From the NCBI GenBank assembly GCA_002501065.1, contig DLRK01000196.1, positions 133,048-197,047 of the forward strand: 64,000 nt of DNA, given 5' to 3'. The position numbers and the translations under genes are program-made. A model generated the notes under the pieces. It was not told where the DNA came from. It saw nothing but the letters and a program-made list of their open reading frames with translations, and did no database searches. The number at the start of each line of letters is the position of its first letter. Position 1 is the stretch's first letter. Of the stretch, positions 28,485-50,948 are shown piece after piece. Source of the stretch: Akkermansiaceae bacterium UBA7890 (lineage in GTDB: Bacteria; Verrucomicrobiota; Verrucomicrobiia; Verrucomicrobiales; Akkermansiaceae).

Positions 28485-28669
28485 GGAAATGTGGATAGTG
28501 CGTTTCTTGACGGAGGATGACGCGCTGCTGCGGGACCATTGCCCAATCACGGGTAGTCCGTCAGATCCACCTGAACTCACCACTCCGGAGGCAGCAGTTT
28601 CACCTTCCCTTAAACTGCTCCATCACGGACACCCATTGCGAATGGAAAGGGTCCTTGATTGGACAAGTT

Positions 28670-35825: not shown

Positions 35826-38315
35826 ATGCCAAAATCCGATCGTTGGTGGACTTGTGGGAATCGAATGAGGAGAGAGAGGATGCACGTGATTCTGCCCGTG
35901 ATGGGATGTGTCTGCGTCCTGCTGAGTGGACGGCTTCACGCCGCGTCACCAGGGGTGGGGATTGAGAGTGAAGACTCGACGGAACTCCGATTGCAATTCG
36001 AAGTGTTGCAGGGAGACCTCAAGAAGCGCCAGCGCATCGCCGGGTATGCGAGCCAGGTCACCCATGAGGAAGCGTTGATCCTGGATGCTGATCGGGATCC
36101 GGTCGACGTGGTGCTGCGCCGGACGGAAGCGCTTCTCGACGACTTGAGCCGGGAGGCGGCGCCGCCCTTCACCACGATGCGCAAAGAACTGGCGGTGCTT
36201 CGGGAGGAGGTCCTGCGAACCGAAGTGGAAGACGCCGAGGGGCGCTATGCGGTTTATGAGAAGCTCTGTGCGCTTCGCCGCCGGATTGCGTTTTCGAATC
36301 CGCTTCTCGATTTCGACGAAGTTCTCTTCATGAAGCGCCACCGCTCGGGCTTCAATCACATGTGTGACCAGTACTACGGAGTGAATGCCAAGCCGGGTGG
36401 GGGACTTTACGTCCTTTCCGATCCCTTTGGTCCGGATCCGCAGGTGCGCGATATTCTGTCGGATTCGGTGGTGCAGCGAGGGCGGCTGAAGGGTGAGAAG
36501 CTGATCAACGGCTCCTTCGTGTCTCCGGATCTCTCCTACGACGGCAGGAACGTCCTCTTTGCATACGTGGAATGTGAAGGCGATACGAAACACAGACATC
36601 ATACCGATCCTTCACGTGGGCACTGGGCGGAAGGGCGCAGTTACCACCTCTTCAAGGTTGGAGTGGACGGGAGCGGGCTCGAGCAGCTGACGGACGGGAC
36701 GTGGAACGACTTCGATCCCTGCTGGCTTCCGAACGGAAGGGTCGCCTTCATCAGCGAGCGGCGGGGTGGCTACCTGCGCTGCGGCCGCGTTTGCCCGACC
36801 TACACCCTGCACGACATGGAGCCCGATGGCAGTGACATCCTGTGCCTCAGTCCGCACGAGACCAACGAGTGGCATCCCAGCGTGACGAATGACGGGATGA
36901 TAATCTATACTCGCTGGGACTATGTCGATCGCCACGGTTGCACTGCCCACCTGCCGTGGATCACAACGCCCGATGGGCGTGACTCGCGTGCTGTGCACGG
37001 CAATTTCGCACCCCGGGAGCGTCGTCCCGACATGGAACTCGATCTGCGTGCCATTCCCGGCTCCAGCAAGTTTGTTGCAACTGCCGCGCCGCACCACGGT
37101 CAATCCTTCGGATCGCTGGTGGTGGTGGATCCGCGGGCGAGGGACGACGATGCGATGGCGCCGGTGAAGCGGATCACTCCGGAAGTAGATTTTCCCGAAA
37201 CCCAGGGCGGGGGCCAGGTCTATGGCACGCCATGGCCGCTCAGCGAGAAGTACTACCTCTGTGTCTACGATGCGGGGATGAAGCCGGGTTTCGGGGGACA
37301 GGGCCGGAGGCACGTCCGGGGCAACTACGGGATCTACCTCGTGGATGCCTTTGGAAACCGGGAACTGATCCATCGCGATGGAGAGATTGCCTGTCAGAAT
37401 CCGGTTCCCCTGCGGGCGCGCCCGGTTCCGCCGCAGGTTCCAGTGGCGTCCCAGCGCGTGGCGGCGGGTGAGTCGGGGGAAGGCACCCTCGCGGTGTTGA
37501 ATGTCTACGACAGCCTGAAGGCGTGGCCGGAGGGAACGAAAGTGGACGCCTTGCGCGTTTACCAGGTCATTCCCATGTCAGTTCCCTCCGGGGCGCCACC
37601 CCACGAGGTCGGCCTGCGCCTGCCCACCGGGCGGGACTCCGTCATTCTGGCCCGCTATATCCTGGGCACGGTTCCGGTCGAGAAGGACGGGAGTGCGCAC
37701 TTTGTCGTTCCGGCGGGCAAGGAGTTGTTCTTCCAGGTCCTGGATGACGAGGGCCTCGCGGTGCAGTCCATGCGCTCGTCAACCTATGTCCAGCCGGGTG
37801 AACGGCTGGTGTGTGCAGGCTGTCATGAACCCCGGCATCGCACGCCGGAGCTTCAATTTGAACTGCCCCTCGCCCTGAGCCGCGAGCCTTCCAGGATCGT
37901 CCCTGATGTCGACGGGACCAATCCCTTCAGTTATCCCCGGCTGGTGCAGCCGGTGCTCGACCGGCATTGCGTCAAGTGCCATGCCGAAAATCCGGATACC
38001 TCCCCGAGACTGGACAAGGAGGTCATCGTGAAGGGTCGGCAGAAGTGGTACGCCTCGTATCACAGCCTCGCTTCCAAGTTCGGGTTCTGGAGTTACGGGG
38101 ACCGGCATCGGACCACGCCCGGTAAATTCGGAGCCCGGGCCTCCAAGCTCTACCAGATACTCCGGGATGGTCACTACGAGGTAAAGCTGTCCCAGGAAGA
38201 GATGCACCGGATCACGGTGTGGCTCGATTCCTGTTCGGTCTTCTACGGCGTTTACGAAAAAGAAGGAGGTGAAGCCCAGCTCCGTGGCGAGGTCGTGAAG
38301 CCGACCCTGGAGTGA
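35826..38315 (+). CDS. HzsA-related beta-propeller c-type cytochrome, paralogue 7 (2 CxxCH)
   Basis: 829 aa from ATG 35826. ATG 35880 is preceded by AGGAGAGAGAGG and gives the signal MHVILPVMGCVCVLLSGRLHA, so it is probably the true start. Linker: NPLLDFDEVLFMKRH. Blades: LPNGRVAFISER, NDGMIIYTRWDYVDRHGCTAHLPWITTPDG. Haem block: GTVPVEKDGSAHFVVPAGKELFFQVLDDEGLAVQSMRSSTYVQPGERLVCAGCHEP. Second module: VQPVLDRHCVKCHA. Confidence 0.85.
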   Translation: MPKSDRWWTCGNRMRRERMHVILPVMGCVCVLLSGRLHAASPGVGIESEDSTELRLQFEVLQGDLKKRQRIAGYASQVTHEEALILDADRDPVDVVLRRTEALLDDLSREAAPPFTTMRKELAVLREEVLRTEVEDAEGRYAVYEKLCALRRRIAFSNPLLDFDEVLFMKRHRSGFNHMCDQYYGVNAKPGGGLYVLSDPFGPDPQVRDILSDSVVQRGRLKGEKLINGSFVSPDLSYDGRNVLFAYVECEGDTKHRHHTDPSRGHWAEGRSYHLFKVGVDGSGLEQLTDGTWNDFDPCWLPNGRVAFISERRGGYLRCGRVCPTYTLHDMEPDGSDILCLSPHETNEWHPSVTNDGMIIYTRWDYVDRHGCTAHLPWITTPDGRDSRAVHGNFAPRERRPDMELDLRAIPGSSKFVATAAPHHGQSFGSLVVVDPRARDDDAMAPVKRITPEVDFPETQGGGQVYGTPWPLSEKYYLCVYDAGMKPGFGGQGRRHVRGNYGIYLVDAFGNRELIHRDGEIACQNPVPLRARPVPPQVPVASQRVAAGESGEGTLAVLNVYDSLKAWPEGTKVDALRVYQVIPMSVPSGAPPHEVGLRLPTGRDSVILARYILGTVPVEKDGSAHFVVPAGKELFFQVLDDEGLAVQSMRSSTYVQPGERLVCAGCHEPRHRTPELQFELPLALSREPSRIVPDVDGTNPFSYPRLVQPVLDRHCVKCHAENPDTSPRLDKEVIVKGRQKWYASYHSLASKFGFWSYGDRHRTTPGKFGARASKLYQILRDGHYEVKLSQEEMHRITVWLDSCSVFYGVYEKEGGEAQLRGEVVKPTLE

Positions 38316-41300
38316 TTTCCCTCAAGACGGATTTCGGCATGTACCTGCAGATTCTTCTCTTCTGGCTTCTCTCCCTTGCGGTGTGGGGGAGCCAGGGAAT
38401 CGTCTTCGAGGGCCACTCGGGAATCGGGAAGGGCAAACACATCGTTCTGGTCAGCGGGGATGAGGAATATCGCTCCGAGGAAGCCCTGCCGATGCTGGGG
38501 GAAATCCTGTCCAGGCGATACGGGTTCAAGTGCACCGTGCTCTTCGCCATCAACCGCGAAACGGGCGAGATCGATCCCAATACGGTCGACAACATTCCCG
38601 GCCTCTCGGCCCTGGAGAGCGCCAACCTGATGATCGTGTTCACCCGCTTCCGGGATCTTCCGGATGAGCAGATGGCTTACGTCGACGCCTACCTGCAGAG
38701 CGGGAAACCGGTGATCGGAATCCGCCCCTCGGTGGTGGCCTTTCGAACCAGGAAGGGCAGCAGGTTCTTCCGATACAGTTCCAGCAACGGGGGAGGCGAT
38801 TTCGCGGGCGGCTTCGGGCGTCAGGTCCTGGGGGCGACCTGGATTTCGCACCATGGCCGGCACGGAGCGGAGAGCACCCGTGGTATCCCGGTTGACGCCA
38901 TGGCAGATCATCCCATCCTGCGGGGGGTGGATACCATGTGGGGTCGAACCGATGTCTACACGGTCCGCACTCCCATTCCGCACGGCGGGAAGGTGCTGGT
39001 GATGGGCCAGTGCCTGGAGGGGATGACACCCTCTTCTCCCCCATCGGCCAAGCCGCAGATGCCACTGGCCTGGATCAAGCGTTTTCCTTCCACGAATGGA
39101 GATGCGCGGGTGTTCATGACCACCATGGGCGATGCCCAGGATTTCCGGGATACGGGTTTCCGGCGCATGGTCGTGAATGCCTGTCTGTGGGGCGTGGGTC
39201 TGGAGGATCAGATTCCGGCCAAAAGCATGGTCGACTTCGTCGGCGCCTACGATCCGTTGCCCTTCGGATTCAACGGTTTCAAGAAGGGGCTGTTTCCCCG
39301 CCACTATGCGGGGGGCGATAAACCGAAGAAGGAAGGCGCCCCTTCCGACGAGGCCCTCCTGGGCGATCTGTTCCGGAAAGGAGATCGTATCTGTTATATC
39401 GGCAATACCCTGGCGGACCGGATGCAGCACTTCGGGTGGGTGGAGACCCTGTTTCAGGCCAGGTATCCCGACAAGCAGTTGGTTTTCCGAAACCTGGGAT
39501 TCGCGGCGGACGAACTCACGGTGCGCCCCCGCTCCATGAACTTTGGCGACCCGGATGTTCATCTCATGCACTCCGAGGCCGACCTTGTTTTCGCCTTCTT
39601 CGGCTACAACGAGTCGTTTGGAGGAGAGGCCGGTCTGCTGGAATTCAGAAAGAACCTCACGGAGTTCGTCGATCACACTCTGGCCCGCAAATACAATGGA
39701 ACGAGCGCGCCGCGCCTGGTGCTGTTTTCGCCCATTGCGCACGAGAATCTGCGCGATCCGGACCTGCCGGATGGAACCGAGAACAACCGTCGTCTTGCTC
39801 TCTACACCGAAACGATGCGTGAGGTGGCGAGGGAGAAGAAAGTCGTCTTCGTGGATCTGTTTGCACCAACCAAGGCGCTGTTCGCAAAATCAGATGAACA
39901 GCTGACGATCAATGGAATTCATCTCGATGGGAAGGGGAACCGGCAATTGGCGGAGATCATTGATGGAGCTCTCAACGGAAGGTCTGGTCGCTATGATGAA
40001 AAGAAACTCGAGCGGATCCGGGAGGCGGTGCTGAACAAGAATCTCCGCTGGTTCAACCGTTACCGTGCCACGGATGGTTACAGTACATACGGCCAGCGAG
40101 CCTACCTGACTTTCGTGAACGGCCAGTCCAACAAGGACGTGATGGATCGTGAGATGTTGATCCTCGATGCCATGACCGCGAACCGGGACAGGCGGATCTG
40201 GGCGGCCGCACAGGGCCGTGAGCTCGCGGTCGATGACAGCAACCTCCCGAAGCCGATCCCCGTCAAGACCAACCTGGGAGGTGGAAGCAGGAGCTCCAGC
40301 GCGGTGAAGGAGGGTTCCCTCAATTACCTCGGGGGGAAAGAGGCCATCGACAGGATGACGGTGGCCAAGGGGATGGAGGTTGGTCTTTTTGCCTCCGAAG
40401 AACAGTATCCCGAGCTGGTCAATCCGGTCCAGATGGCGGTCGATACCGATGGACGGATGTGGGTGGCGGCCTGGCACACTTATCCGCACTGGGACCCGAA
40501 CAAGGAACTCAATGACAAGCTGCTGATCTTTCCCGATGAGGACGGAGACGGGGTGGCGGACCGCTGCATCGTGTTTGCGGACAAGTTGCACAATCCGACC
40601 GGATTCGAGTTCTGGAACGGGGGCGTGCTGGTGGCCTGTGCGCCCGAAATTCTCTTCCTGAAGGACACCGATGGCGACGATAGAGCCGACCTGACGATCC
40701 GGTTGCTCGATGGGATCGACTCGGCCGACACGCACTGCGGGGCCAACAGCTTTGTCTACGGTCCCGACGGTTACATCTATTTTTCGGAAGGGATTTTTCA
40801 TTTCACCAACGTCGAAACGCCCTGGGGAAAACCGCTTCGGACCAAGGGGCCGATGCTCTATCGCTTTAACCCGCGAACCTACGAGATCCACGAACAGTTC
40901 AAGATCAGTCCCAATCCCCACGGAGTCGTGATCGATGATTGGGGACGGCTCTTTGCCACCGACGGCACGAGTGGCCGTGGTTACTATGTCGGCTATCCCG
41001 GGGCGGGCACTCCGCACGAACTCTACCGGAAGCGGGTGCGGCCGGTGGCGGGTTTCGGCCGGATTTCGGGGAGTCACTTCCCCGAAGAGAATCGGGGCAA
41101 CCTTCTGATCTGCAACACGATCGGGGTCCTCGGAATCCTGCAGCACAAGGTGGTGGTGGAAGGGGCGGACATTCGGAGCGAAGAGATCGAACCGATCGTG
41201 GTCTCCACCGATGGGAATTTTCGGCCGACCGATGTTGAGCTTGGCGCCGATGGAGCCCTCTACTTCCTGGACTGGCACAATGCCATCATCGGGCACATGC

Positions 41301-42832
41301 AGCACAACCTGCGTGATCCGAGCCGCGATCATGCCCACGGGCGGATCTACCGCGTTACCGCAAAAGGGCGGCCGTTGTTGAAGCCGGTGCAGATGAGCAG
41401 GAAGTCGATTTCGGAGTTGCTCGAGTTGCTCGAGTCGCCCGAGGACGCGGTGCGCTATCGGGCCCGCATTGAACTCAGTGGACGGGACAGCAGCGAGGTT
41501 CTGGCCGCGGCACGGAAGTGGATCAGTCGATTTGATGCAGGTGACTTAGCGGATGCCCGTCCGCTCACTGAAGCGCTCTGGCTGCACGAGCAGCACAACG
41601 CGGTGAACGAACCATTGCTGACGAAAGTCCTCCGCTCGTCCAGCGGGCCGGCCCGCGCGGCGGCCACCCGCACCCTGGGGCACTGGGGAAGGAGAGTGAA
41701 AGAGGGCGCCAGGCTCCTGCAGGAGAGAGCCCGGGATCCCGAACCTCTGGTGCGGGCCGAGGCGCTGGTGGCGGCCGCGGCATTCGAGGGCCTGGATGCA
41801 GCCGAAGTGGTCTTCCGCGCGGTGCAGTGTCCCACCGATGCCCAGATCGAGTACAACCTCGCGCAGACGCGACGCGTGATCGATCCCTACTGGCAGAAGG
41901 CGCTCGGGGAGGGCCGGACCCTGTCGCGGGCAGGCCAGGCCTTCGTGAGGGGGATGAAGCGCGGATCGAGGGAAGGGGTTGTGGGTGCGGGATCGCAGGA
42001 CAGCGCCACGAACCTCCTCCATGTTTATCATGAGACCGCCTTTACGAAGGCCGGTGAAGCGACCGGGATCAGGTATTTCACCAAGTCCCCTCCGGGGAAG
42101 GAGTTCAGCGTCTATCATCTGCGTCCGGAGAAGAGTGGGAGCTACAAGGTCGTGCATGCCGGGATGTTCAAGTCGGATGCCAAGACCGGGATGAAGAGCG
42201 TGTCCTTTGCCCGACCATGGCAGATGATGGCCGGCGATGTGCTCGCCCACTCCGGCAACGGGGGGCCGACCTATCGGAGTGCTCCGGATGCCTGGGGGGA
42301 TACCCTCTATCACCCGGTGAAAAGTCTTCCGGTGGTGGGGCAGAGTTTTCGACCTGGCCAGCAGCAGGTTCTTCCGCAGAAGCGGCAGTATTCCATGCAG
42401 CCCATCATGAGTGGATCCTCGGGGGAGCAGCCGGATCCGGTGCCCGCGGAGGCGGATGCCGACGTGATCATCAGGACCATTCCCGAGATGATGAGATACG
42501 ATTTGAAGGAGTTCACGGTGAAGGCCGGGAAGAAGGTGAAGCTCCTCCTCATCAATCCCGACAACATGCCGCACAACGTCGTTATCGCCGAGCCCGGAAC
42601 GATGGAGCAGGTCGGACTCCTTGCCGACAAGATGGCGGTGGACCCGCAGGCGGCGAAACGGCACTACGTGCCGAATTCTTCCATGGTTCTCTTTGCGACC
42701 ACGATGGTCGACGATCACTCGCAGGCCACCCTCGATTTTATCGCTCCCGGCGAGCCCGGAGACTATCCCTTCCTCTGCACCTTTCCCGGCCACTGGCGCC
42801 TGATGCAGGGCGTGATGAAGGTCGTTCCTTGA
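38312..42832 (+). CDS. 1506-aa multidomain protein: ThuA-like + SGNH-hydrolase-like + PVC-type (glucose/sorbosone-dehydrogenase-like) propeller + HEAT repeats + C-terminal blue-copper (azurin/plastocyanin-like) domain
   Basis: GTG 38312 overlaps the upstream stop (GTGA); the alternative ATG 38339 gives the signal MYLQILLFWLLSLAVWG. ThuA-like: KHIVLVSGDEEYRSEEALP...ARVFMTTMGDAQDF. SGNH-like: ICYIGNTLADRM...FRNLGFAADE...NGIHLDGKGN. Dehydrogenase: NPVQMAVDTDGRMWVAAW...DGDGVADR...NPTGFEFWNGGVLV...DTDGDDRAD. HEAT: AVRYRARIELSG, PLVRAEALVA. Type-1 Cu ligand pattern: MPHNVVIAEPG ... YPFLCTFPGHWRLMQG. Confidence 0.8.
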   Translation: MISLKTDFGMYLQILLFWLLSLAVWGSQGIVFEGHSGIGKGKHIVLVSGDEEYRSEEALPMLGEILSRRYGFKCTVLFAINRETGEIDPNTVDNIPGLSALESANLMIVFTRFRDLPDEQMAYVDAYLQSGKPVIGIRPSVVAFRTRKGSRFFRYSSSNGGGDFAGGFGRQVLGATWISHHGRHGAESTRGIPVDAMADHPILRGVDTMWGRTDVYTVRTPIPHGGKVLVMGQCLEGMTPSSPPSAKPQMPLAWIKRFPSTNGDARVFMTTMGDAQDFRDTGFRRMVVNACLWGVGLEDQIPAKSMVDFVGAYDPLPFGFNGFKKGLFPRHYAGGDKPKKEGAPSDEALLGDLFRKGDRICYIGNTLADRMQHFGWVETLFQARYPDKQLVFRNLGFAADELTVRPRSMNFGDPDVHLMHSEADLVFAFFGYNESFGGEAGLLEFRKNLTEFVDHTLARKYNGTSAPRLVLFSPIAHENLRDPDLPDGTENNRRLALYTETMREVAREKKVVFVDLFAPTKALFAKSDEQLTINGIHLDGKGNRQLAEIIDGALNGRSGRYDEKKLERIREAVLNKNLRWFNRYRATDGYSTYGQRAYLTFVNGQSNKDVMDREMLILDAMTANRDRRIWAAAQGRELAVDDSNLPKPIPVKTNLGGGSRSSSAVKEGSLNYLGGKEAIDRMTVAKGMEVGLFASEEQYPELVNPVQMAVDTDGRMWVAAWHTYPHWDPNKELNDKLLIFPDEDGDGVADRCIVFADKLHNPTGFEFWNGGVLVACAPEILFLKDTDGDDRADLTIRLLDGIDSADTHCGANSFVYGPDGYIYFSEGIFHFTNVETPWGKPLRTKGPMLYRFNPRTYEIHEQFKISPNPHGVVIDDWGRLFATDGTSGRGYYVGYPGAGTPHELYRKRVRPVAGFGRISGSHFPEENRGNLLICNTIGVLGILQHKVVVEGADIRSEEIEPIVVSTDGNFRPTDVELGADGALYFLDWHNAIIGHMQHNLRDPSRDHAHGRIYRVTAKGRPLLKPVQMSRKSISELLELLESPEDAVRYRARIELSGRDSSEVLAAARKWISRFDAGDLADARPLTEALWLHEQHNAVNEPLLTKVLRSSSGPARAAATRTLGHWGRRVKEGARLLQERARDPEPLVRAEALVAAAAFEGLDAAEVVFRAVQCPTDAQIEYNLAQTRRVIDPYWQKALGEGRTLSRAGQAFVRGMKRGSREGVVGAGSQDSATNLLHVYHETAFTKAGEATGIRYFTKSPPGKEFSVYHLRPEKSGSYKVVHAGMFKSDAKTGMKSVSFARPWQMMAGDVLAHSGNGGPTYRSAPDAWGDTLYHPVKSLPVVGQSFRPGQQQVLPQKRQYSMQPIMSGSSGEQPDPVPAEADADVIIRTIPEMMRYDLKEFTVKAGKKVKLLLINPDNMPHNVVIAEPGTMEQVGLLADKMAVDPQAAKRHYVPNSSMVLFATTMVDDHSQATLDFIAPGEPGDYPFLCTFPGHWRLMQGVMKVVP

Positions 42833-42882
42833 GGACGAATGCCATGCCAAGGAACTCTGATGGGAGGATCACGCGCCAACCG

Positions 42883-42901
42883 GGGCGGACGAGCTCCGCC
42901 C
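42883..42901 (+). terminator. Possible stem-loop after the 1506-aa gene
   Basis: GGGCGGA-cgagc-TCCGCCC: 7-bp stem with a 5-nt loop, 51 nt after the stop and followed by TTGCCGTT. It could be an attenuator rather than a full terminator, since same-strand genes follow. Confidence 0.25.
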
Positions 42902-42960
42902 TTGCCGTTCGACGGGATCCATGGTGCGGTGCCTGGAGGAAAGGAGTTGTGAAGAGGAGC

Positions 42961-43857
42961 ATGAGAACGGTAGTGGCGGCAGGGACCGCAGGTATTCGGC
43001 CCGGTGTTGCCGTCTTCTGCTTCCTGATGTGGATTTCTGCAGGTCTTGCTGGCGCGGAGAAGGAGAGAAGGGCGAACCTCTTCTTCGCTTTCGACAACGG
43101 TGTCGGACGTGGCAAGTGGATGCCGCAGGAGCAGGCGCGAACCCTCAAGGAGCTTGGTTACGACGGGATCGGATACACCGGCACGAAGAATCTCCTCGAA
43201 CGGTTCAAGGCCTGCGATTCGCAAGGCCTGAGAGTGTTCAGTCTGTATCTGCCCTGCCATCCCGGGAATGAAGTTCCCTTCTCACCGCAGCTCGCAGAGG
43301 CCGTGAAACAGCTCGAAGGAACGGGAACGATGCTCTGGTTGACAGTGCAGGGAAGGAGCAGCGACATGGAAGCGGTGCGGGTGATCCGGGAAATCTCTGA
43401 CATTGCCGGCAGGCATGGCATCAAGGTTGCGCTCTACCCGCATCATGGATTTTATGTTGCTACGGCAAGGGACGCGGTGCGACTTGTGAAGCAGGTCGGT
43501 CGCCCCAACGTGGGTGTTTCCATCAACCTCTGCCACGAGCTGCGGGCTGGCAACGTGGACAGGCTGGGCGAAATCATCGAGGAGGCGGCGCCCCATCTGT
43601 TCCTGGTTTCGATCAACGGTGCGGATCGGGAAGGGGGATGGGACAAGCTGATCAGGACGCTGGACCAGGGTGAGTTCGACGTCCCGGGGTTTCTACGGAA
43701 GCTGGCGGCAGTGGGTTACACGGGGCCCGTCGGTCTGCAATGCTACAACCTCAAGGGTGACCAGCGGGAGAATCTGGAGATCTCGATGAAGGCGTGGAGA
43801 AACCATCTCTCGAGTGATGACAGGTCCCGCGGGCAGCTTCAGGTGCCGGAAAAATGA
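42961..43857 (+). CDS. Sugar phosphate isomerase/epimerase (xylose isomerase-like TIM barrel), secreted
   Basis: The track ORF 42217..43857 is an over-extension that overlaps the previous gene. ATG 42961 gives MRTVVAAGTAGIRPGVAVFCFLMWISAGLAGA (signal). Motifs: LGYDGIGYTG, VALYPHHGFYV, VSINLCHELRAG. Confidence 0.7.
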   Translation: MRTVVAAGTAGIRPGVAVFCFLMWISAGLAGAEKERRANLFFAFDNGVGRGKWMPQEQARTLKELGYDGIGYTGTKNLLERFKACDSQGLRVFSLYLPCHPGNEVPFSPQLAEAVKQLEGTGTMLWLTVQGRSSDMEAVRVIREISDIAGRHGIKVALYPHHGFYVATARDAVRLVKQVGRPNVGVSINLCHELRAGNVDRLGEIIEEAAPHLFLVSINGADREGGWDKLIRTLDQGEFDVPGFLRKLAAVGYTGPVGLQCYNLKGDQRENLEISMKAWRNHLSSDDRSRGQLQVPEK

Positions 43858-43902
43858 CAGGCCGACACTTGTGATTTCCCTGTGTGTCTGGAACATGCAC
43901 GG

Positions 43903-45150
43903 ATGCGCCTTGGATCGATGATCGCTCTTCTTGCCGCGGCCACTGCAATTCCCGCCGGTGCTGCACCCGCCCCGTTTTCCCTGGAGATCAGTCAGCTGAC
44001 TTCCGGTGAGAAACACCACTTCTTCGGCTATATCGGTCAGTGCCGGACCATTCCCTGGAATGAGAGTGGACGTTATGTGCTCGGGTTGGAGATCGATGCC
44101 ATCGATCGCATGCCGAAACCCGGGGAGGCCGCTCTCATCGTCCTGATCGATACCAGGCAGAACAACCAGATCATTCCCATCGAGAAAACCCGCGCCTGGA
44201 ATCCGCAGCAGGGGACCATGTTCTACTGGAATCCGCTCGCAGCCGGGACGCAGTTCTTCTTCAACGACCGTGATGAGGAGACCGGAAAGATCTTCACGGT
44301 TCTCTATGATATCGGGAAGAGGGAACGGATCCGGGAGTATAGATTCGACGACACCCCTGTTGCTAACGGCGGGGTGGCCCAGAAGGGAGGAGCCTTCCTT
44401 GCCCTCAACTACGGGCGCATGGCGAGGCTGCGGCCCGTCACGGGTTATCCTGGTGTGGCCGACTGGTCGCAGGCCGGGGACCCCGCCCCCGCCAACGACG
44501 GCATCTTCGTGGTTGATACCCGGACCGGCGCCAGGCGGCTCCTGGTCTCTTTTCGCCAGCTGGCCGACAAACTGAAGGAGGCTGATTCCAGGACGCCCGA
44601 TCTCCCCCTTTTCATCAATCACAGCCTTTGGAATCGTGATGGCAATCGGGTTTACTTCTTCGCACGGGGCGGATGGAATCGGCGTGGGTCACGAATCAAT
44701 GTTCCGTTTTCCATCCACAGCGACGGCACGAATCTGACCTGCCACTCACAACATATCGGCGGCCATCCCGAGTGGGCGGAGGGATCCCTCGTCATCGGAC
44801 GATCCGGTCCGGATCAGATCCTTTACGACATTGATACCCGGAAGGTCGCCGGCAAGCTGGGCACGCCGAAGATCTTCCCCAATCCGGAGGGTGATGTCTC
44901 GCTCTCTTCTGATGGAAAGTGGTTCGTAAACGGATACAAGACCGGCACCAGTAACCACTACGTCGTCTACCGCCGTAGCGACGGCGCCTCGGTCCGGAGT
45001 GAAGGCTTCGACAAGGGGAGATACTCCGGCGACATCCGTATTGATCCCGCTCCGCGATGGAACCGCACCAACGACGCCATCCTCGTCCCGGGCCTTGCGG
45101 ACAACGGAACCCGGCAGATGTTCGTGATCCGGATACGTTCGAACGAGTGA
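43903..45150 (+). CDS. Hypothetical secreted protein, probably beta-propeller (TolB/oligogalacturonate-lyase-like)
   Basis: The track starts at GTG 43882; ATG 43903 gives the signal MRLGSMIALLAAATAIPAGAA. Repeated strand-like segments: GRYVLGLE, MFYWNP, IFTVLYD, IFVVDTRTG, NRVYFFARG, GKWFVNGY, and a C-terminal IRIDPAPRWNRTNDAILV. I recognise no family with confidence. Confidence 0.5.
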   Translation: MRLGSMIALLAAATAIPAGAAPAPFSLEISQLTSGEKHHFFGYIGQCRTIPWNESGRYVLGLEIDAIDRMPKPGEAALIVLIDTRQNNQIIPIEKTRAWNPQQGTMFYWNPLAAGTQFFFNDRDEETGKIFTVLYDIGKRERIREYRFDDTPVANGGVAQKGGAFLALNYGRMARLRPVTGYPGVADWSQAGDPAPANDGIFVVDTRTGARRLLVSFRQLADKLKEADSRTPDLPLFINHSLWNRDGNRVYFFARGGWNRRGSRINVPFSIHSDGTNLTCHSQHIGGHPEWAEGSLVIGRSGPDQILYDIDTRKVAGKLGTPKIFPNPEGDVSLSSDGKWFVNGYKTGTSNHYVVYRRSDGASVRSEGFDKGRYSGDIRIDPAPRWNRTNDAILVPGLADNGTRQMFVIRIRSNE

Positions 45151-45154
45151 CCCT

Positions 45155-46066
45155 CTACCTGGCTGGAATTGATTCTGTTGTCGCGGTGAGATCACCGAGC
45201 GCGAACTGGATGCCGTCGAGGTAGTGCTGCAGGACGGTCGGGTTCCAGAAGATGTCATGCTGGTGCCCAAGGGCGGAGTAGAAGACCCGGCCCTTGCCGT
45301 AATTCTTGATCCAGCTCAGGGCAAAATCGCGATCCGTGCGGCGGATGCCCTTGATCTTCGCCAGGTCCATCCCGGTGGTGTCGAGACTGAAGAGGACCCG
45401 CAGCTGTTTGCGGTCGAATTCCTTGAACTGGTAGATCTCGTCCGTGACGGTGAAACGGTCGGACGGGAAGGCGTGGCAAAGGCAGTGCTCGGGATCCTCG
45501 ATTTTCAGGGTAACGGTCGAGCCTGCATTCCACGGATGGCTTTCGAAGCGGGCCCCGACGATGGCGCCGTACTCCGGCCACTTCCGGAAGCTGGCAATGC
45601 CGGCGTGAATGACCATGAGCCCCTTTCCATCCGAGAGGAATCCGCGGAGGCTCTTCTTCAGGAGGGTGTCGCGTGCATTGGCCTTCTCCTGCCCGGCGGG
45701 TGGGAGCTTGGAGAAGTTCTCGGGAAGGAAGATCTCGTTGTTGGTGTTGTTGAAGACGACCGCATCGAACTTCGCGAGACGATCGGGTTCGAAGAAGGAA
45801 TCGTCGTTGGTGATTGTGGCGTCGAAGGCCTTCGTCTTCTCACCCATCATCCTGATGGCGGCTTCTCCATAGGGAATGGCAGTGTGCCAGTATCCCCAGG
45901 CGCGGGAGAAGACCAGGAGTTTGCGGGGTTTGTGGGGCTTTGCGGAGGCTTTTGATGGGACTGCGGCTTTGATCCTTGCGAGCTCATCCGGAGTGGGGGC
46001 GGCACTGAGTCCCGCTACGGCGATCAGAAGCAGGACGGAAGTAAGAGAGGAGAGGATGAGTTTCAT
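45155..46066 (-). CDS. ThuA domain-containing protein
   Basis: ATG 46066 (MKLILSSLTSVLLLIAVAGLSAA) overlaps the upstream stop as ATGA. The 91-codon extension in the track is junk. Motifs: RKLLVFSRAWGYWHTAIPYG, FDAVVFNNTNNE, GLMVIHAGIASF, RVFYSALGHQHDIFWNP. Confidence 0.85.
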   Translation of the reverse strand: MKLILSSLTSVLLLIAVAGLSAAPTPDELARIKAAVPSKASAKPHKPRKLLVFSRAWGYWHTAIPYGEAAIRMMGEKTKAFDATITNDDSFFEPDRLAKFDAVVFNNTNNEIFLPENFSKLPPAGQEKANARDTLLKKSLRGFLSDGKGLMVIHAGIASFRKWPEYGAIVGARFESHPWNAGSTVTLKIEDPEHCLCHAFPSDRFTVTDEIYQFKEFDRKQLRVLFSLDTTGMDLAKIKGIRRTDRDFALSWIKNYGKGRVFYSALGHQHDIFWNPTVLQHYLDGIQFALGDLTATTESIPAR

Positions 46067-48570
46067 TTCGATCGATTCTGGTTGGCGTAATGCCGGAACT
46101 GTCCGGCGATGTTCGCGCTTCCGGCGTCGCCCCGATGCAGGACGATCCGATAGCGCAGGATGAGAGGCTTGGTGGTGGGCAGAACGACGGGCTGCCGTCC
46201 CGGAAACACGGGATTCTGACAACTTCTGCTTCGTCGAATCGTCCAGCCCTGGGGGAAGCCGGGGAGAGAGGGATGGCAGAGGATGGCAAGGCCGGAAGTT
46301 TCGCCCCGTCCGCCGAAGTCGGCGCTGAAATCGACCCATGGCTGAGGCGATGAGGGATTCCTGGTATCCACGGTCACGGGGCCCTCCGGACCGATGATCT
46401 GCAGCTCCGGCGGCAAGGGGATACGAACCGAGAATCCGCCATAACCTTTCGTGTTCTCGGAACCGCCGAGACGCACGTTCTCTTCAAGGGCACGCAGTTG
46501 GATCTTGAAGTCGATCAGGCGAGTCGTCTCTGTGGATGAGTGAACGCGGATCGTGGCGTGCTCCTCCACGATCGGTTTCTGGTTGCCATCCTCATCGACC
46601 CAGAGCGGCGACTTCCAGTGGACCATCGCCTCGATCGCAGACGAGGTTTCATCACTCTCGATGTCGACATCGCGCACGTCCCAGATGAGATCCTTCTGTT
46701 CCCACGGAACTCCGATGCGTTTTTCACCGATCCAGAGCTGCATCCACGACCAGAAAACGCCCCGATGGTGACGATGATCAGCGGGCATGTCGTCGGTCAT
46801 GCCCACCCCGTCGAGATCGTAGAGAGGGTGAATGTAGTGGCCGCGTCTGTAGCTTCCGTCCGGCTGTGAAAGCGGATCCCTGTTGTAGACGAGGATCTCT
46901 TTCCCGTCTTCCGAAAACCGGAATCCACCCCTGGTGCGGTGAATCTTGACCTTGGAAGGAGTGTTGATCGCGGGGAATTCCTGCGGACCGCCGATCGACT
47001 GCACCCCACCTCCTGGAACGGAGGGGACGGTGCGCCTCGGGGGTGGCGTCTTCTGTGGTTCGGGAGGTGGGGGAGAGTTCCTGTGGAGGCGATTCAGGGT
47101 GTAGACCATCCACGGATTGACCAGGGCATGGCCATCCTTGCTGGTGAGATCCTTGATCCGGAGGTCATAGAGTCGCCATGGTTTCAGCTTGTCGAGGGTG
47201 AGGGATACGGTCCGCTGGTCGCTGGAGACGTGGGCTGAAACCACGCGTTCAGGAGTCTGCCCGTACTTCTTCGAGCCATATTTCTCGTGGTAGTTGTAGA
47301 GATAGCTCTGGAGTGCGTAAGTGGATGGATCAGCGGCAGTTTCCATGTGAACGGGACGGGTAAAGGTGAGCTCGAATCCGGAGCTGGTGAGTTTCATCGA
47401 ATGCACTTCCATGGGCGTCACGCCGTTCCACTTCAAACACTTCAGACCACTTGCGCCTACCCACGCCTTGTGTCTGGTCCCTCCAATCCAGAGGCTTCCA
47501 TCATCGGGGTGGAAGGCGAGTCTGTTGTTCCCGAGGCTCAGGCCGGCCTTGTCGAAGAATGGAATGCAGGCGCCCTGAAGCTGTCCATCCACCTTCTCGA
47601 GCATGATCCGAATCAGCCGCGGGAAATTCATGGCCCCGATGAACATTTGTCCTGCAAAGGGGCCGAAGCGGCCGCCAGTGGTATCGCACAATGGCTGGGA
47701 AGGGGAATTCGCCATCTCGCCGTGGGGAAAGACGATTGCCGGGCGTGAGCGCAGGCGATCCAGTTCCGCGACCGGGACTTCGAAGGGATGTCGATTGAAG
47801 CCGGCTCGCCACACGAGGCTGTGTGGGTGTCCGTAAAATCCGCCCCGGCGAATGTGATAAAGGGCACTGGAACCGACGAAGTCACCCTGGTTGTCAGGCA
47901 CAAGGAGATTTCCATCCAGATCGAATCCAAGTCCGTTCGGTTCGCGAAAGCCGTTGGCCCACGGAATGGTCCTGCCGTCCGAAGTGAGCTTCATGATCCA
48001 GCCACGGTAGGGCACACAGGAGTTCATCCGCCCGTCGTGACCGGTACGGCTGTAGAGGCCCCGGACTTCGTTGGTGAGGAGCCGACCGAAGGCGGATCCC
48101 GTTCCGAGACTGAAGTAGAGATTGCCGTCGTCGTCCCGGACTGGACCGAAGTTGAACTCGGCGTAGTTGCCCGAGATGCCGAAATCGTCCGAGAGGGTCC
48201 GGAAGTGGTCGGCTGCACCGTCTCCGTTCCGGTCGGTGAGCAAAGTGATCTCCGGCCGTTGTGCCACGACGATCTCGGTATCACTTATCGGCAGAAGTCC
48301 CAGGGGTGTGTGCAGCCCTTCGGCGAAGAGGCGCCATTTCCCGGTCACCGGATGGTAAGTGTAGACCTTGCTGAGGGAGAGACAGCAGGCCAGTCGGCCG
48401 TCGGGAAGAAAGGCCACCGCATCGACGCTGGACTCGCCGTCCGGAAGGGGGATGGACTGCAGTTCGTAGTAGTTGTTGATCAGGGTCGCGGACTCCTTGT
48501 CTTCACCGTGAGCAGGCGGACATGCGAGAAGAGCGGCGAAGAGAAAGACGATAATGGATCTGGGGGGCAT
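46063..48570 (-). CDS. Fusion of a glucose/sorbosone-dehydrogenase-like (PVC-type) beta-propeller with a C-terminal PmoA-like DUF6807 domain
   Basis: 835 aa, signal MPPRSIIVFLFAALLACPPAHG. Propeller: AVAFLPDGRLA, DRNGDGAADH, DDDGNLYFSLG, FREPNGLGFDLDGNLLVPDNQGD, FYGHPH. A Pro-rich linker follows (PPPPEPQKTPPPRR). DUF6807-type block: RGHYIHPLYDLDGVGMTDDMPADHRHHRGVFWSWMQLW. Confidence 0.75.
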   Translation of the reverse strand: MPPRSIIVFLFAALLACPPAHGEDKESATLINNYYELQSIPLPDGESSVDAVAFLPDGRLACCLSLSKVYTYHPVTGKWRLFAEGLHTPLGLLPISDTEIVVAQRPEITLLTDRNGDGAADHFRTLSDDFGISGNYAEFNFGPVRDDDGNLYFSLGTGSAFGRLLTNEVRGLYSRTGHDGRMNSCVPYRGWIMKLTSDGRTIPWANGFREPNGLGFDLDGNLLVPDNQGDFVGSSALYHIRRGGFYGHPHSLVWRAGFNRHPFEVPVAELDRLRSRPAIVFPHGEMANSPSQPLCDTTGGRFGPFAGQMFIGAMNFPRLIRIMLEKVDGQLQGACIPFFDKAGLSLGNNRLAFHPDDGSLWIGGTRHKAWVGASGLKCLKWNGVTPMEVHSMKLTSSGFELTFTRPVHMETAADPSTYALQSYLYNYHEKYGSKKYGQTPERVVSAHVSSDQRTVSLTLDKLKPWRLYDLRIKDLTSKDGHALVNPWMVYTLNRLHRNSPPPPEPQKTPPPRRTVPSVPGGGVQSIGGPQEFPAINTPSKVKIHRTRGGFRFSEDGKEILVYNRDPLSQPDGSYRRGHYIHPLYDLDGVGMTDDMPADHRHHRGVFWSWMQLWIGEKRIGVPWEQKDLIWDVRDVDIESDETSSAIEAMVHWKSPLWVDEDGNQKPIVEEHATIRVHSSTETTRLIDFKIQLRALEENVRLGGSENTKGYGGFSVRIPLPPELQIIGPEGPVTVDTRNPSSPQPWVDFSADFGGRGETSGLAILCHPSLPGFPQGWTIRRSRSCQNPVFPGRQPVVLPTTKPLILRYRIVLHRGDAGSANIAGQFRHYANQNRSK

Positions 48571-48594
48571 GGGACTCGCGATTACGGATGGTGG

Positions 48595-49674
48595 TCATTT
48601 CCCGGCTGCCTCCGGGGAAGAGATGGTGAGGTAAAACTCCCGAGCGTCGTCGCCGCGGAAGACAAGGTAGTCGCCCTTCCGTTGGCCGTTGGAATGGATT
48701 TGGTCCACCTGTTCGGGATCGATGGAAAACCAGATCAGGTTACCGGAAGCTGACGTCGTCCGGAACCGTCGCAGCAGTCGATCATCGCGGACTTCGATTC
48801 GCTCCTTCACCAGGATGCCGTCCATTTCGTATTCGAATTCCGGTATGCCTGAATCGTCCAGGGCGTAGCCGAGAAAGCGGATTTCAGACGGCTTCCGTGG
48901 TTTTGCACCTCCGATCCGCAACGGGAACGCGTTGCTTTCCCGGTAATAGACCTCACCCACCAGTTTGCCTGGTTGGCGATAAACCGGTTCCACGAAGCCT
49001 CCTTTCCAGGCGTAGCGGAAGGAGCAGGCGCCGGCGTCCCAGCAGTAAGAATGCCCCTCCGGCAAGTGCACCGCGATGGAGGCCGGACCGGAATCAGGCA
49101 TGAAAATACGTTTCAGTATCGCCCGGTCGCTTCCCGTCAGGAGAGTTGTTTCGGCGCTTGATGGATCGGTGTTCGCGACGGATGGCTTCGGATCATTGGT
49201 GACATGCATGGAACCGTGCATGACGAACCCGTGGCCGGGATAGGTGCAGACGAAGGAATACTCGGCGAGAGTGGCCGGAGCGGTGAACCGCAGCGTGAAG
49301 GATTCTCCCGAGGCGACCACCTTGGTGGCCCAGAGCACATTTGTGGAGCTCGGAACAAAGTGAACCTCCGGCGCCCTGGATCCCAGAGCCAGGGCGGCAT
49401 TGACCACGGTGTTTCTGGTCCCGGGTTTCACGATTACGAGGTTGTGCAGCATTGTGTCACTGTTGGAAAAGATCAGCTCCACCTCTGCCCCCGGTTTGAT
49501 GTCGAAACGCTTGAGATCATAGCGCAAGCCCGGGAGGGTGCCGATCCGGATGGTGGTCCTGGTGTCGGCGGCTTCGAGATCATGAACCACAGAGGCCGGA
49601 AGGAGGAGGACTCCCAGGAAGGAGAGAAGCCTGTATCCCCGGTGCTTGAGTGGAAAGGCAGGGAGTGTGCTCAT
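48595..49674 (-). CDS. Blue-copper (cupredoxin, azurin/plastocyanin-like) domain protein with uncharacterised C-terminal domain
   Basis: 359 aa with a signal-like N-terminus (LLSFLGVLLLPASVV). Type-1 Cu ligand pattern: MLHNLVIVKPG ... YSFVCTYPGHGFVMHGSMHV (His, Cys-x4-His-x4-Met). The ATG overlaps the upstream stop (ATGA). Confidence 0.75.
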   Translation of the reverse strand: MSTLPAFPLKHRGYRLLSFLGVLLLPASVVHDLEAADTRTTIRIGTLPGLRYDLKRFDIKPGAEVELIFSNSDTMLHNLVIVKPGTRNTVVNAALALGSRAPEVHFVPSSTNVLWATKVVASGESFTLRFTAPATLAEYSFVCTYPGHGFVMHGSMHVTNDPKPSVANTDPSSAETTLLTGSDRAILKRIFMPDSGPASIAVHLPEGHSYCWDAGACSFRYAWKGGFVEPVYRQPGKLVGEVYYRESNAFPLRIGGAKPRKPSEIRFLGYALDDSGIPEFEYEMDGILVKERIEVRDDRLLRRFRTTSASGNLIWFSIDPEQVDQIHSNGQRKGDYLVFRGDDAREFYLTISSPEAAGK

Positions 49675-50948
49675 TCGATTGTGAACTGGGTTCCTCCGGC
49701 GAGGGCCTTCACTTTTCCTTCATCGACCTCCACCCCGAGTCCATGGCCGGTGGGGATCTCCATCATTCCATTCTCGATCTTAAGGGGTCGTTCCAACACG
49801 TCCGCAGTCAGAAACTGCGGGCCGTTCAGCGCCGCAGGTTTCCTGAGACCAAACGCCCCGTAGAGTCCGAGCGTGGCAGCAAGAGAAATGTCGGGGTCGG
49901 TCAATCCGCTTCCGAGCCACATCAGGCCTTCCGAGAGAATCAGTTCGATTTGTGCTTTCGCCGATACCAACCCGCCACACCGCGAGTGCTTCATCGCGAC
50001 GCCGTCGATCATCTTGAGCTGGATGAACTCACGAAGTTCCACGGGGGAGACCACACCCTCGTCCATCAGGATCGGCAGGGCTCCCTGCTTCTTGAGGGCC
50101 TGGTAGCCGCTGATCTGGTTTGGTTTGATGGGCGCCTCCAGGACATCCACGCCGGCCTTGGCCAGCTTGGGGGCGATTTCCAGGGCGGTGGCGGGATCGT
50201 ATCCACCGTTGGCGTCCGCCCAGAGAAAGGCGTTCGGGGCGTTCCTGCGAACCGCGGTCGCCAGAGCGAGGTCGAACCTGGGATCGGGGGCAACCTTGAT
50301 GTTGAAGTGCCTGTAACCTCGTTTATGCCCCTTCTCCATGAGGCCGTCGACCTCATCGAGCGACCTTGGGTTCAGGGTCCAGCTGAGGGTGAGTGGTTCT
50401 CCTGCCGGGCGTCCCCAGAGTTTTGCCAGCGACTTCTTCTCTATTCGTCCCGCCAGATCGTGCAGGGCCACATCGAGGCCGGCGCGCGTGATCGGCATCC
50501 CGGTCGAGAATCCGTCGGCGATCGACCGGGTCATGATTTCGTGAGCCCCGGCGAAATCGAAGAGATTGTGCCCGATGAGTTTCGGAGCAAAGTAGTCACG
50601 CAGGGCGGTCGTTGCCGTCTCAAGCGTTTCGTAACTCCACTTTGCCACAGGCACGCTCTGCCCCCAGCCGGTCACTCCGTTTGCAGCCGTTACTTTGACA
50701 AGAACGGCGGCACGACCCTTCGATCCGTGGGGACCGGTGAAGAACTTGAAGTGCCCGGTCATCGGGTAGCGTACGGGGAACAGGTCGATGCGACTGATTC
50801 TCATGGTTGAATCCGTGGTCCGGCCCATTACTCGTCTGCTCATTCCGACGAAGGGCAGGGCGGCGGCACCCTTCACGAACCGGCGTCGCCCGATACAAGC
50901 ACGACTTCGGATGGATCTGGGAGCACAACCTGCATCGAGTGAGCTCAT
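49671..50948 (-). CDS. Enolase-superfamily (mandelate racemase/muconate lactonizing enzyme-like) protein, possible twin-arginine signal
   Basis: The track ORF (to 51236) overlaps the upstream gene. ATG 50948 gives MSSLDAGCAPRSIRSRACIGRRRFVKGAAALPFVG. The alternative ATG 50804 gives MRISRIDLFPVRYPM, a classical MR/MLE N-terminus. Catalytic blocks: HFNIKV, LWADANGGY, VLEAPI, ILMDEG, KHSRCGG. Confidence 0.8.
   Translation of the reverse strand: MSSLDAGCAPRSIRSRACIGRRRFVKGAAALPFVGMSRRVMGRTTDSTMRISRIDLFPVRYPMTGHFKFFTGPHGSKGRAAVLVKVTAANGVTGWGQSVPVAKWSYETLETATTALRDYFAPKLIGHNLFDFAGAHEIMTRSIADGFSTGMPITRAGLDVALHDLAGRIEKKSLAKLWGRPAGEPLTLSWTLNPRSLDEVDGLMEKGHKRGYRHFNIKVAPDPRFDLALATAVRRNAPNAFLWADANGGYDPATALEIAPKLAKAGVDVLEAPIKPNQISGYQALKKQGALPILMDEGVVSPVELREFIQLKMIDGVAMKHSRCGGLVSAKAQIELILSEGLMWLGSGLTDPDISLAATLGLYGAFGLRKPAALNGPQFLTADVLERPLKIENGMMEIPTGHGLGVEVDEGKVKALAGGTQFTIE

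Follow-up and report, generated by a model that had tools for sequence, protein, structure and literature searches.

DUF7133/TIGR02604 beta-propellers paired with blue-copper carriers in a fused gene and a split operon of an Akkermansiaceae genome

A 64,000-nucleotide stretch of the genome of Akkermansiaceae bacterium UBA7890 (contig DLRK01000196.1 of assembly GCA_002501065.1, positions 133,048 to 197,047; hereafter the window) contains two loci in which a beta-propeller of the DUF7133/TIGR02604 family is associated with a blue-copper (cupredoxin) domain. One is a single gene for a 1506-aa exported fusion protein, and the other is a convergent operon with genes for a cupredoxin, a propeller protein and a stand-alone ThuA protein (Table 1). 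Both loci are probably independent members of one large family of exported, sugar-oxidoreductase-like proteins, in which the propeller is wired to blue copper and not to c-type haem, such that oxidation of a sugar would deliver electrons to type-1 copper and from there to the respiratory chain. An initial annotation of the window had proposed a Rosetta-stone relationship, with the modules of the fusion protein encoded separately in the operon. A link between ThuA, propeller and cupredoxin does hold at the level of the families, but the two loci do not represent the split and fused forms of one system.

Functional coupling of propeller and cupredoxin is supported by recurrence and by carrier interchange, and not by the single juxtaposition in the window. 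Relatives of the split cupredoxin protein, which carries a DUF6797-like domain, occur in at least 574 species genomes, among them members of Pedobacter, Chitinophaga, Dyadobacter and Larkinella, and the family it belongs to, labelled 'plastocyanin/azurin family', comprises at least 500 cluster representatives. In a sample of 80 loci from other species of Verrucomicrobiota, Bacteroidota and Planctomycetota, the propeller gene lies directly downstream of the cupredoxin gene in 70, mostly with a 4-nt overlap, and the same pair was returned by three independent context look-ups. Cupredoxin and propeller also form a single open reading frame (ORF) in an Opitutaceae bacterium MBA3-11 isolate (L021:9863-12577, 904 aa) and in a Chthoniobacter metagenome-assembled genome (L094:9845-13492, 1215 aa), in the latter together with DUF6797 and a Laminin_G_3 insert. 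These two ORFs are a closer Rosetta-stone fusion than the 1506-aa protein originally singled out.

The pairing of propeller and cupredoxin occurs eight times in the UBA7890 genome itself (5.04 Mb, 94% complete). A PF00127 profile search of this genome found only two of its ten cupredoxin domains, missing the stand-alone one, and profile searching likewise failed to pick up the weak ThuA match in the 1506-aa protein; local blastp was used instead for the cupredoxins, and absences of short domains should be taken with care. All ten azurin-like domains have the spacing C-x4-H-x3-M, and none is part of a CxxCH-bearing protein. Four are the C-termini of SGNH-like + DUF7133 + HEAT proteins, four are in proteins whose genes immediately precede the gene of a split-type propeller (three propellers of about 470-510 aa, plus the 835-aa protein of the window), one is a 189-aa stand-alone protein and one ends a 1050-aa DUF1080 protein. 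The last of these (C76:7776-10928, in L008) has its DUF1080 (3-keto-disaccharide hydrolase) domain at the N-terminus, and about 680 residues without assignment separate it from the C-terminal azurin-type domain.

Carriers of the two metal types take the same positions. Among the 64 DUF7133 ORFs, 47 have a single CxxCH motif, which in most of them lies about 110-130 residues before the C-terminus; four end in a cupredoxin and 13 have neither. All seven split-type (about 500-aa) propellers are preceded by a coupled carrier gene, which encodes a cupredoxin in four cases and a cytochrome c in three, the latter with a small start/stop overlap between the carrier and propeller genes. Cytochrome c therefore occupies the place of the cupredoxin in fused and split formats alike, which bears out the earlier suggestion that the cupredoxin replaces a c-type cytochrome domain, and haem c and type-1 copper carriers are interchangeable in both. 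In a tree of the DUF7133 domains, all four copper-tailed proteins fall into one 12-member clade (support 100/99) together with six haem-tailed proteins; this mixture within one clade implies at least two carrier switches. DUF6797 or a DUF6797-like domain was found in five of the seven split-format partner proteins, two of the three cytochrome proteins among them, and on these matches is a recurring adaptor of the split format. In a paralogous pair (L006), DUF6807 sits on the cupredoxin protein (C77:481-2955; DUF6807 + Copper-bind + F5/8 type C) and in the window it sits on the propeller, so that it is a third shuffled module of the same unit.

An association of ThuA with the propeller, as had been envisaged, is evident at the level of the genome. 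Nine ThuA-DUF7133 fusions were found by genome search, or ten with the 1506-aa protein included. Of the 16 ThuA genes that stand alone, nine have a DUF7133 gene within 1.5 kb, about seven-fold above the expected 1.3, and none of 5000 random placements reached nine. Both families are abundant, with 25 ThuA ORFs beside the 64 of DUF7133, so that their joint presence on a 12-kb stretch of the window is weak evidence by itself; cupredoxin domains, of which the genome has ten, are rarer.

Module-by-module comparison found only the cupredoxins of the two loci to be close (42.5% identity over 127 residues, E 5.5e-26, blastp). The propellers align with 34% identity over 85 residues by blastp, and hhalign recovers their homology with a probability of 98.3% (E 1.3e-14, 24% identity over 175 columns). 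Both ThuA modules match the same Pfam family, and thus neither the N-terminal modules nor the propellers belong to unrelated families. The two loci are therefore best described, on these alignments, as distant paralogous systems and not as one system in two formats. The possibility of a single system in split and fused versions was rejected on the blastp result, and identity of the pre-cupredoxin domain of the fusion with the DUF6797-like adaptor of the split protein was rejected by hhalign (probability 0.1). Conserved proximity of fused and split loci was likewise rejected, since it was not seen in the closest relatives: the closest complete genome has no orthologue of at least 1400 aa near its split operon.

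The 1506-aa gene starts with a GTG that overlaps the preceding stop codon (GTGA), and an ATG at 38339 is an alternative start. All ORFs named in the initial annotation are present at the coordinates given there, and the module order listed for the fusion (ThuA, SGNH-like, propeller, HEAT, blue copper) agrees with the Pfam and NCBIfam matches. The ThuA match is weak (42.6 bits against a cut-off of 33.4), and the propeller match clears the TIGR02604 cut-off of 122 bits and contains two DxDxDxxxD-type motifs, at residues 742 and 785. The SGNH-like module has GNT in block I and NGIH in block V in place of the canonical GDS and DxxH, and its relatives have G-N-G, G-G-G, G-N-S or G-S-G in block I. 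Orthologues and paralogues alike lack the canonical residues, so the module is unlikely to be an ordinary esterase. Ahead of the cupredoxin, a region of about 130-200 aa has no Pfam match, and nine homologues cover at least 99% of residues 1180-1506. The predicted copper ligands are H1421 (hand-counted from the translation), C1489, H1494 and M1498, the last three within the motif CTFPGHWRLM, and the domain matches PDB entry 6KOL with E 5.5e-12.

Orthologues of the fusion protein are 1473-1495 aa long with the same Pfam set. At least 368 cluster representatives, from Bacteroidota, Verrucomicrobiota, Planctomycetota and Gammaproteobacteria, combine ThuA + DUF7133 + HEAT + Copper-bind. Many of the copper-tailed homologues are named 'PVC-type heme-binding CxxCH protein' by NCBI, a misleading name for these members, which according to Pfam have a copper domain but no cytochrome domain. 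Of 15 genomes with the split pair, ten or eleven also hold cupredoxin ORFs of at least 900 aa, which indicates that the two formats coexist as a rule. Two of three contexts of 1506-aa orthologues contain an adjacent AP_endonuc_2 TIM-barrel gene and an AraC/PAS regulator, suggesting that the TIM-barrel enzyme and the fusion protein form a small regulated unit. In these two (L098 and L099), genes for a PAS+AraC-type regulator and an AP_endonuc_2 protein immediately precede orthologues of 1475-1493 aa; in L100, a DUF6807 gene adjoins the orthologue.

In the convergent minus-strand operon, Pfam recovers the cupredoxin, propeller and ThuA genes that had been described. The propeller and ThuA genes overlap by ATGA and the cupredoxin and propeller genes are 24 bp apart, again as described; the junction between the upstream MR/MLE gene and the cupredoxin gene is also an ATGA overlap. 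All four proteins under study (fusion, cupredoxin, propeller and ThuA) have a signal-peptide-like hydrophobic segment at the N-terminus, and none contains a CxxCH motif. The ligands of the split cupredoxin are H77, C143, H148 and M152 (motif CTYPGHGFVM), all invariant in an alignment of 15 diverse homologues. A common pattern of His plus Cys/His/Met in the two cupredoxins, which had been noted before, is thus upheld, but the spacing is the C-x4-H-x3-M of azurins and not C-x4-H-x4-M. An AlphaFold2 model of the split protein (mean pLDDT 83.5, mostly 84-98 over the cupredoxin domain) superimposes on auracyanins with Foldseek TM scores of 0.85-0.88 and root-mean-square deviations of 1.6-1.7 Å, which indicates a cupredoxin Greek-key fold, so that both ligands and fold are those of a type-1 copper site of the auracyanin/azurin kind. 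The C-terminal domain of about 180 aa is conserved and has no Pfam match of its own, and PF20601 (DUF6797) matches it in homologues and in the fused versions. The domains that had been listed for the two loci are all present, but the list lacked this domain, the Ig/fn3-like and DUF6807 domains of the propeller protein and the pre-cupredoxin domain of the fusion.

Table 1. Genes and modules of the fused and split loci, in window positions
Feature	Position	Strand	Basis
1506-aa exported fusion protein	38312..42832	+	Pfam/NCBIfam scan; signal peptide predicted
ThuA-like module of the fusion, about residues 41-330	38432..39301	+	PF06283 match at residues 101-293
SGNH/GDSL-like module, residues 375-544	39434..39943	+	PF13472 (Lipase_GDSL_2), 44 bits
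DUF7133/TIGR02604 (Piru_Ver_Nterm) beta-propeller, residues 676 to about 1050	40337..41491	+	PF23500, 230 bits; TIGR02604, 201 bits
HEAT-repeat linker, residues 1101-1177	41612..41842	+	PF13646 (HEAT_2), 36.9 bits
Beta-rich domain without Pfam match, about residues 1240-1370	42029..42421	+	Conserved only in orthologues of about 1475-1506 aa
C-terminal azurin/auracyanin-type type-1 copper domain	42464..42829	+	PF00127 (Copper-bind), 36.2 bits, residues 1392-1504
Xylose-isomerase-like TIM-barrel gene (AP_endonuc_2), start approximate	42964..43857	+	PF01261, 74 bits; downstream of the fusion gene
Stand-alone exported ThuA, 303 aa	45155..46066	-	PF06283, 147 bits (cut-off 33.4)
835-aa exported protein: propeller (33-385), Ig/fn3-like (386-495), Pro-rich linker, DUF6807 (553-825)	46063..48570	-	Pfam; structure model
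359-aa exported protein: cupredoxin (39-159) and DUF6797-like beta domain (about 183-355)	48595..49674	-	Copper-bind at residues 50-158
MR/MLE (enolase-superfamily) gene	49671..50948	-	PF13378 and PF02746; ATGA overlap with the cupredoxin gene

With the two family profiles the split propeller scores only 37.6 and 35.8 bits, above the Pfam (DUF7133) and below the NCBIfam (TIGR02604) cut-off, and its DUF6807 domain scores 143 bits. Sequence and profile searches of this propeller against PDB sequences gave nothing or only NHL/'Pizza' repeats. Its structure model (pLDDT 88, pTM 0.89) shows a six-bladed fold like that of soluble glucose dehydrogenase (sGDH), and the top 15 PDB matches in Foldseek are all sugar dehydrogenases dependent on pyrroloquinoline quinone (PQQ), with E values from 2e-13 to 1e-10 (1C9U, E 2.4e-13; 3A9G, TM 0.72; then 2ISM, 7CDY and 3DAS). 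Fungal AA12/CcPDH proteins and propeller lactonases rank lower. Identity to the PQQ sugar dehydrogenases is only 14-18%. The protein has an R-x-P-x-G motif whose arginine (R209) is invariant, as well as a DxNxDxxxD motif.

Genes up to 5 kb from the split pair were clustered across the 80 loci and cluster representatives were annotated. Next to the propeller cluster itself (72 loci), there are an MR/MLE-type enolase-superfamily cluster (20 loci, plus the closer MR/MLE of L018 and L019), two Amidohydro_2 clusters (19 and 17), SDR/epimerase and DHDPS-type clusters (12 each), further DUF7133+HEAT proteins (11), SusC and SusD (10 each) and DUF1080 (8). The Amidohydro_2 family includes sugar lactonases, the MR/MLE family aldonate dehydratases and the DHDPS family 2-keto-3-deoxy-aldonate aldolases. 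This layout corresponds to a non-phosphorylative route from aldose through lactone and aldonate to the 2-keto-3-deoxy acid, which would place propeller and cupredoxin at the aldose-to-lactone step; the neighbours of the split pair thus suggest an aldose-oxidation pathway. In L013, L014, L018 and L019 the cupredoxin gene has an MR/MLE gene ahead of it, and the entire order MR/MLE-cupredoxin-propeller+DUF6807-ThuA is common to L018 and L019. The MR/MLE gene of the window is probably an aldonate-dehydratase-type partner of the split operon. Its product has a twin-arginine-like motif (RRRFVKGAAAL) before the canonical N-terminus and is probably exported by the twin-arginine translocation (Tat) pathway; an exported MR/MLE enzyme would be unusual.

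A mechanism is proposed in which the periplasmic propeller oxidizes a sugar and the electrons pass singly to type-1 copper, from where they enter the respiratory chain. The substrate of the split type would most likely be an aldose that is converted into a lactone, and that of the fused type could be a glycoside. In the fused form the wiring would be covalent, with the ThuA and SGNH-like modules ahead of the propeller, and the HEAT linker and the extra domain tethering the cupredoxin. In the split form it would rely on co-translation of the cupredoxin/DUF6797-like gene with the propeller gene 24 bp downstream. The DUF6797-like domain or the HEAT linker, respectively, would keep the carrier close to the propeller. 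The data establish which domains are present, that the copper ligands are conserved, that the genes are coupled, that the pairing recurs and that copper and haem carriers replace one another; we infer that the proteins are redox-active, which way electrons flow, what the substrate and cofactor are and what ThuA does. A redox function is the economical reading because the carrier accompanies the propeller, because the carrier toggles between haem c and type-1 copper and because the split pair lies among lactonase-, dehydratase- and aldolase-family genes.

Several observations weigh against this proposal. Pfam GSDH (PF07995) scores 21.8 bits on the split propeller, below the cut-off of 25, and has no match on the 1506-aa fusion. 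The 'RN' motif of sGDH is by eye only partly kept in the split propeller (R209 is invariant, the Asn is not) and is absent from the fused one. The family histidine at position 137 (motif GNYHE in 30 of 34 split-type propellers) is replaced by Ala in the 835-aa protein (window 48160-48162, minus strand), so that this copy may be catalytically atypical; three DUF6807-fused orthologues (L018, L019 and L024) have Ala or Ser at the same position, and the DUF6807-fused subgroup may be catalytically different. In the 94% complete genome, pqqC was not found, with a pqqC control that itself matched nothing in any genome, and the search for pqqE gave only a generic radical-SAM match below the cut-off; PQQ can, however, be scavenged. 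The ThuA modules of the two loci show no significant pairwise match in blastp, and apart from the cupredoxin the loci are only distantly paralogous by blastp and hhalign. ThuA lies downstream of the split pair in only two of the 80 loci, the nearest relatives L018 and L019. Of the single ThuA-propeller-cupredoxin unit first suggested, the propeller-cupredoxin coupling (70 of 80 species, eight times in the genome) stands, and ThuA is not a conserved neighbour of the split pair. Finally, the sole relative to have been assayed, Lac161_ORF7 (AGW45552; TIGR02604+HEAT+cytochrome c, from a Chthoniobacter-like cosmid), is haem-tailed and was reported as a hydrolase and not as a dehydrogenase, with a Km of 1.8 mM for lactose.[PMC5342196]

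The last point leads to a reading in which the propellers are glycoside-cleaving hydrolases or lactonases, and the copper or haem domain is an accessory for stability, sensing or redox regulation. Lac161_ORF7 was purified,[PMC5342196] later work counts TIGR02604 as a putative glycoside-hydrolase family,[PMC7397252] Foldseek also returns propeller lactonases and a lactonase fused to a Cu/Zn superoxide dismutase (3E5Z, 3DR2, 8DJF and 9M58), and the missing pqqC and pqqE would cause no difficulty. This reading leaves unexplained, however, why a dedicated one-electron carrier is kept in nearly all members, with haem c and type-1 copper exchangeable in both formats. The best structural matches are PQQ dehydrogenases, a separate lactonase-family gene is already present in the neighbourhood, and the cleavage of lactose by Lac161_ORF7 could stem from oxidation followed by elimination. 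We regard a purely hydrolytic role as unlikely. Coincidence between abundant paralogues, with the fused gene and the split operon unrelated and no functional link between ThuA, propeller and cupredoxin to be read from the locus, would fit the 64 DUF7133 and 25 ThuA ORFs in 5.04 Mb, the dissimilar ThuA modules, the short alignment of the propellers (34% over just 85 aa), the closest complete genome without a long orthologue near its split operon and the rarity of ThuA after the pair. As a general statement it is largely refuted by the repeated propeller-cupredoxin pairing within and across genomes, by the true fusions of the pair and by the excess of ThuA-DUF7133 adjacency, and we consider it distinctly unlikely.

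A further reading reverses the flow, so that copper would supply the propeller with electrons for a reduction or for oxygen activation, or assigns the cupredoxin to copper handling outside the respiratory chain. The sequence is compatible with flow in either direction, the window encodes several haem or peroxidase-type proteins nearby, and the DUF6807 partner is of undefined function. Against this, the His/Cys/His/Met ligands and the azurin spacing are those of electron-transfer cupredoxins and not of copper chaperones, electrons move from the dehydrogenase to copper in the known pairs of a quinoprotein and a cupredoxin (amicyanin or azurin with amine dehydrogenases; PDB 2H3X), and the catabolic sugar-acid context fits oxidation, which makes this reading very unlikely. 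Oxidation of a sugar with transfer of electrons to copper thus remains our preferred reading. A wider proposal, which we rate as rather unlikely, is that the haem- or copper-tailed ThuA/DUF7133 proteins constitute a PQQ-independent class of periplasmic oxidative glycan-processing enzymes, whose oxidized glycosides would be cleaved by partner TIM-barrel or DUF1080 enzymes through elimination. If true, this would account for the 'beta-galactosidase' activity of Lac161_ORF7, and much of the glycan breakdown in Bacteroidota and in the Planctomycetota-Verrucomicrobiota-Chlamydiota (PVC) group would proceed by oxidation coupled to the respiratory chain and not by hydrolysis, with the choice between copper and haem set by metal or oxygen supply.

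Among known systems, the PVC-type heme-binding CxxCH proteins (TIGR02604 + TIGR02603) share the propeller family, the HEAT linker and the C-terminal carrier with the fusion protein, and some also have an N-terminal ThuA domain; the fusion differs in its azurin-type copper domain in place of CxxCH and in its additional SGNH-like and pre-cupredoxin domains. sGDH and the aldose dehydrogenases (1C9U/1CQ1, PaeASD 3A9G, TTHA0570 2ISM and S. coelicolor Adh 3DAS) share the six-bladed fold, a DxNxDxxxD-type structural metal motif and the periplasmic location. The systems in the window differ from these in their low identity, the sub-threshold GSDH score and a cupredoxin as the carrier. A carrier encoded alongside or fused to the propeller is also a feature of the fungal AA12 pyranose dehydrogenase, with its fused cytochrome b, and of bacterial propellers in a recent preprint, which describes some 22,000 six-bladed PQQ propellers that are encoded in carbohydrate loci and have a cytochrome beside or fused to them, and which does not mention azurin.[bioRxiv 10.64898/2026.07.10.737718] The literature searched yielded no mention of DUF7133, DUF6797 or PF23500 and no description of cupredoxin-linked six-bladed propellers. 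The copper-carrier variant of a six-bladed propeller with a dedicated carrier is nonetheless abundant in databases, where the architecture already has hundreds of entries.

Azurin is the acceptor of Pseudomonas putida ADH IIB. Methylamine dehydrogenase with amicyanin and aromatic amine dehydrogenase with azurin (2H3X) are a model for the split pair, as a periplasmic dehydrogenase there reduces a type-1 copper protein from the same operon, although these pairs have unrelated folds and cofactors (tryptophan tryptophylquinone, or an eight-bladed PQQ propeller) and a free cupredoxin with neither a DUF6797-like adaptor nor a fusion. The closest solved relatives of both cupredoxins are azurins and the auracyanins A and B of Chloroflexus and Roseiflexus (6KOL, 2AAN and 1QHQ), with identical ligand spacing. 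The two cupredoxin modules match auracyanins with E 1.5e-14 and 5.5e-12, the ligand loop falls within the HMMER alignments to 6KOL and 2AAN, and the modelled split protein has 38% identity to 6KOL in the structural alignment. Auracyanins and azurins differ in that they serve photosynthetic or respiratory chains as carriers that stand alone or are anchored by a lipid. Scores of 35.4 and 42.4 bits with the NCBIfam azurin equivalog TIGR02695 (cut-off 105.1) indicate azurin-like proteins and not azurin orthologues. ThuA of the rhizobial thuEFGKAB system for trehalose and 3-keto-disaccharides has the same Pfam domain and sugar-oxidation partners; the rhizobial protein partners the Gfo/Idh/MocA dehydrogenase ThuB, whereas ThuA in the window is fused to or adjoins a propeller.[PMC8121099] Few exported families have expanded as far as DUF7133/TIGR02604 in Verrucomicrobiota, Planctomycetota and many Bacteroidota, and the present results make the family a testable candidate for periplasmic sugar oxidation coupled to the respiratory chain.

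Other genes of the window include three for paralogues of 828-1143 aa that have several CxxCH motifs in common, at 35826-38315 (+), 55599-58085 (-) and 25152-28583 (-). The two that were scanned both match the middle domain of the hydrazine synthase alpha subunit (HZS_alpha). One such HZS_alpha-type gene overlaps the start of the 1506-aa gene through the GTGA. This dihaem propeller gene was rejected as a partner of the fusion, as none of the three contexts of orthologues that were checked contains it. Between the two loci, a 422-aa exported ORF without a Pfam match (43882-45150, plus strand) ends 4 bp from the convergent ThuA gene.

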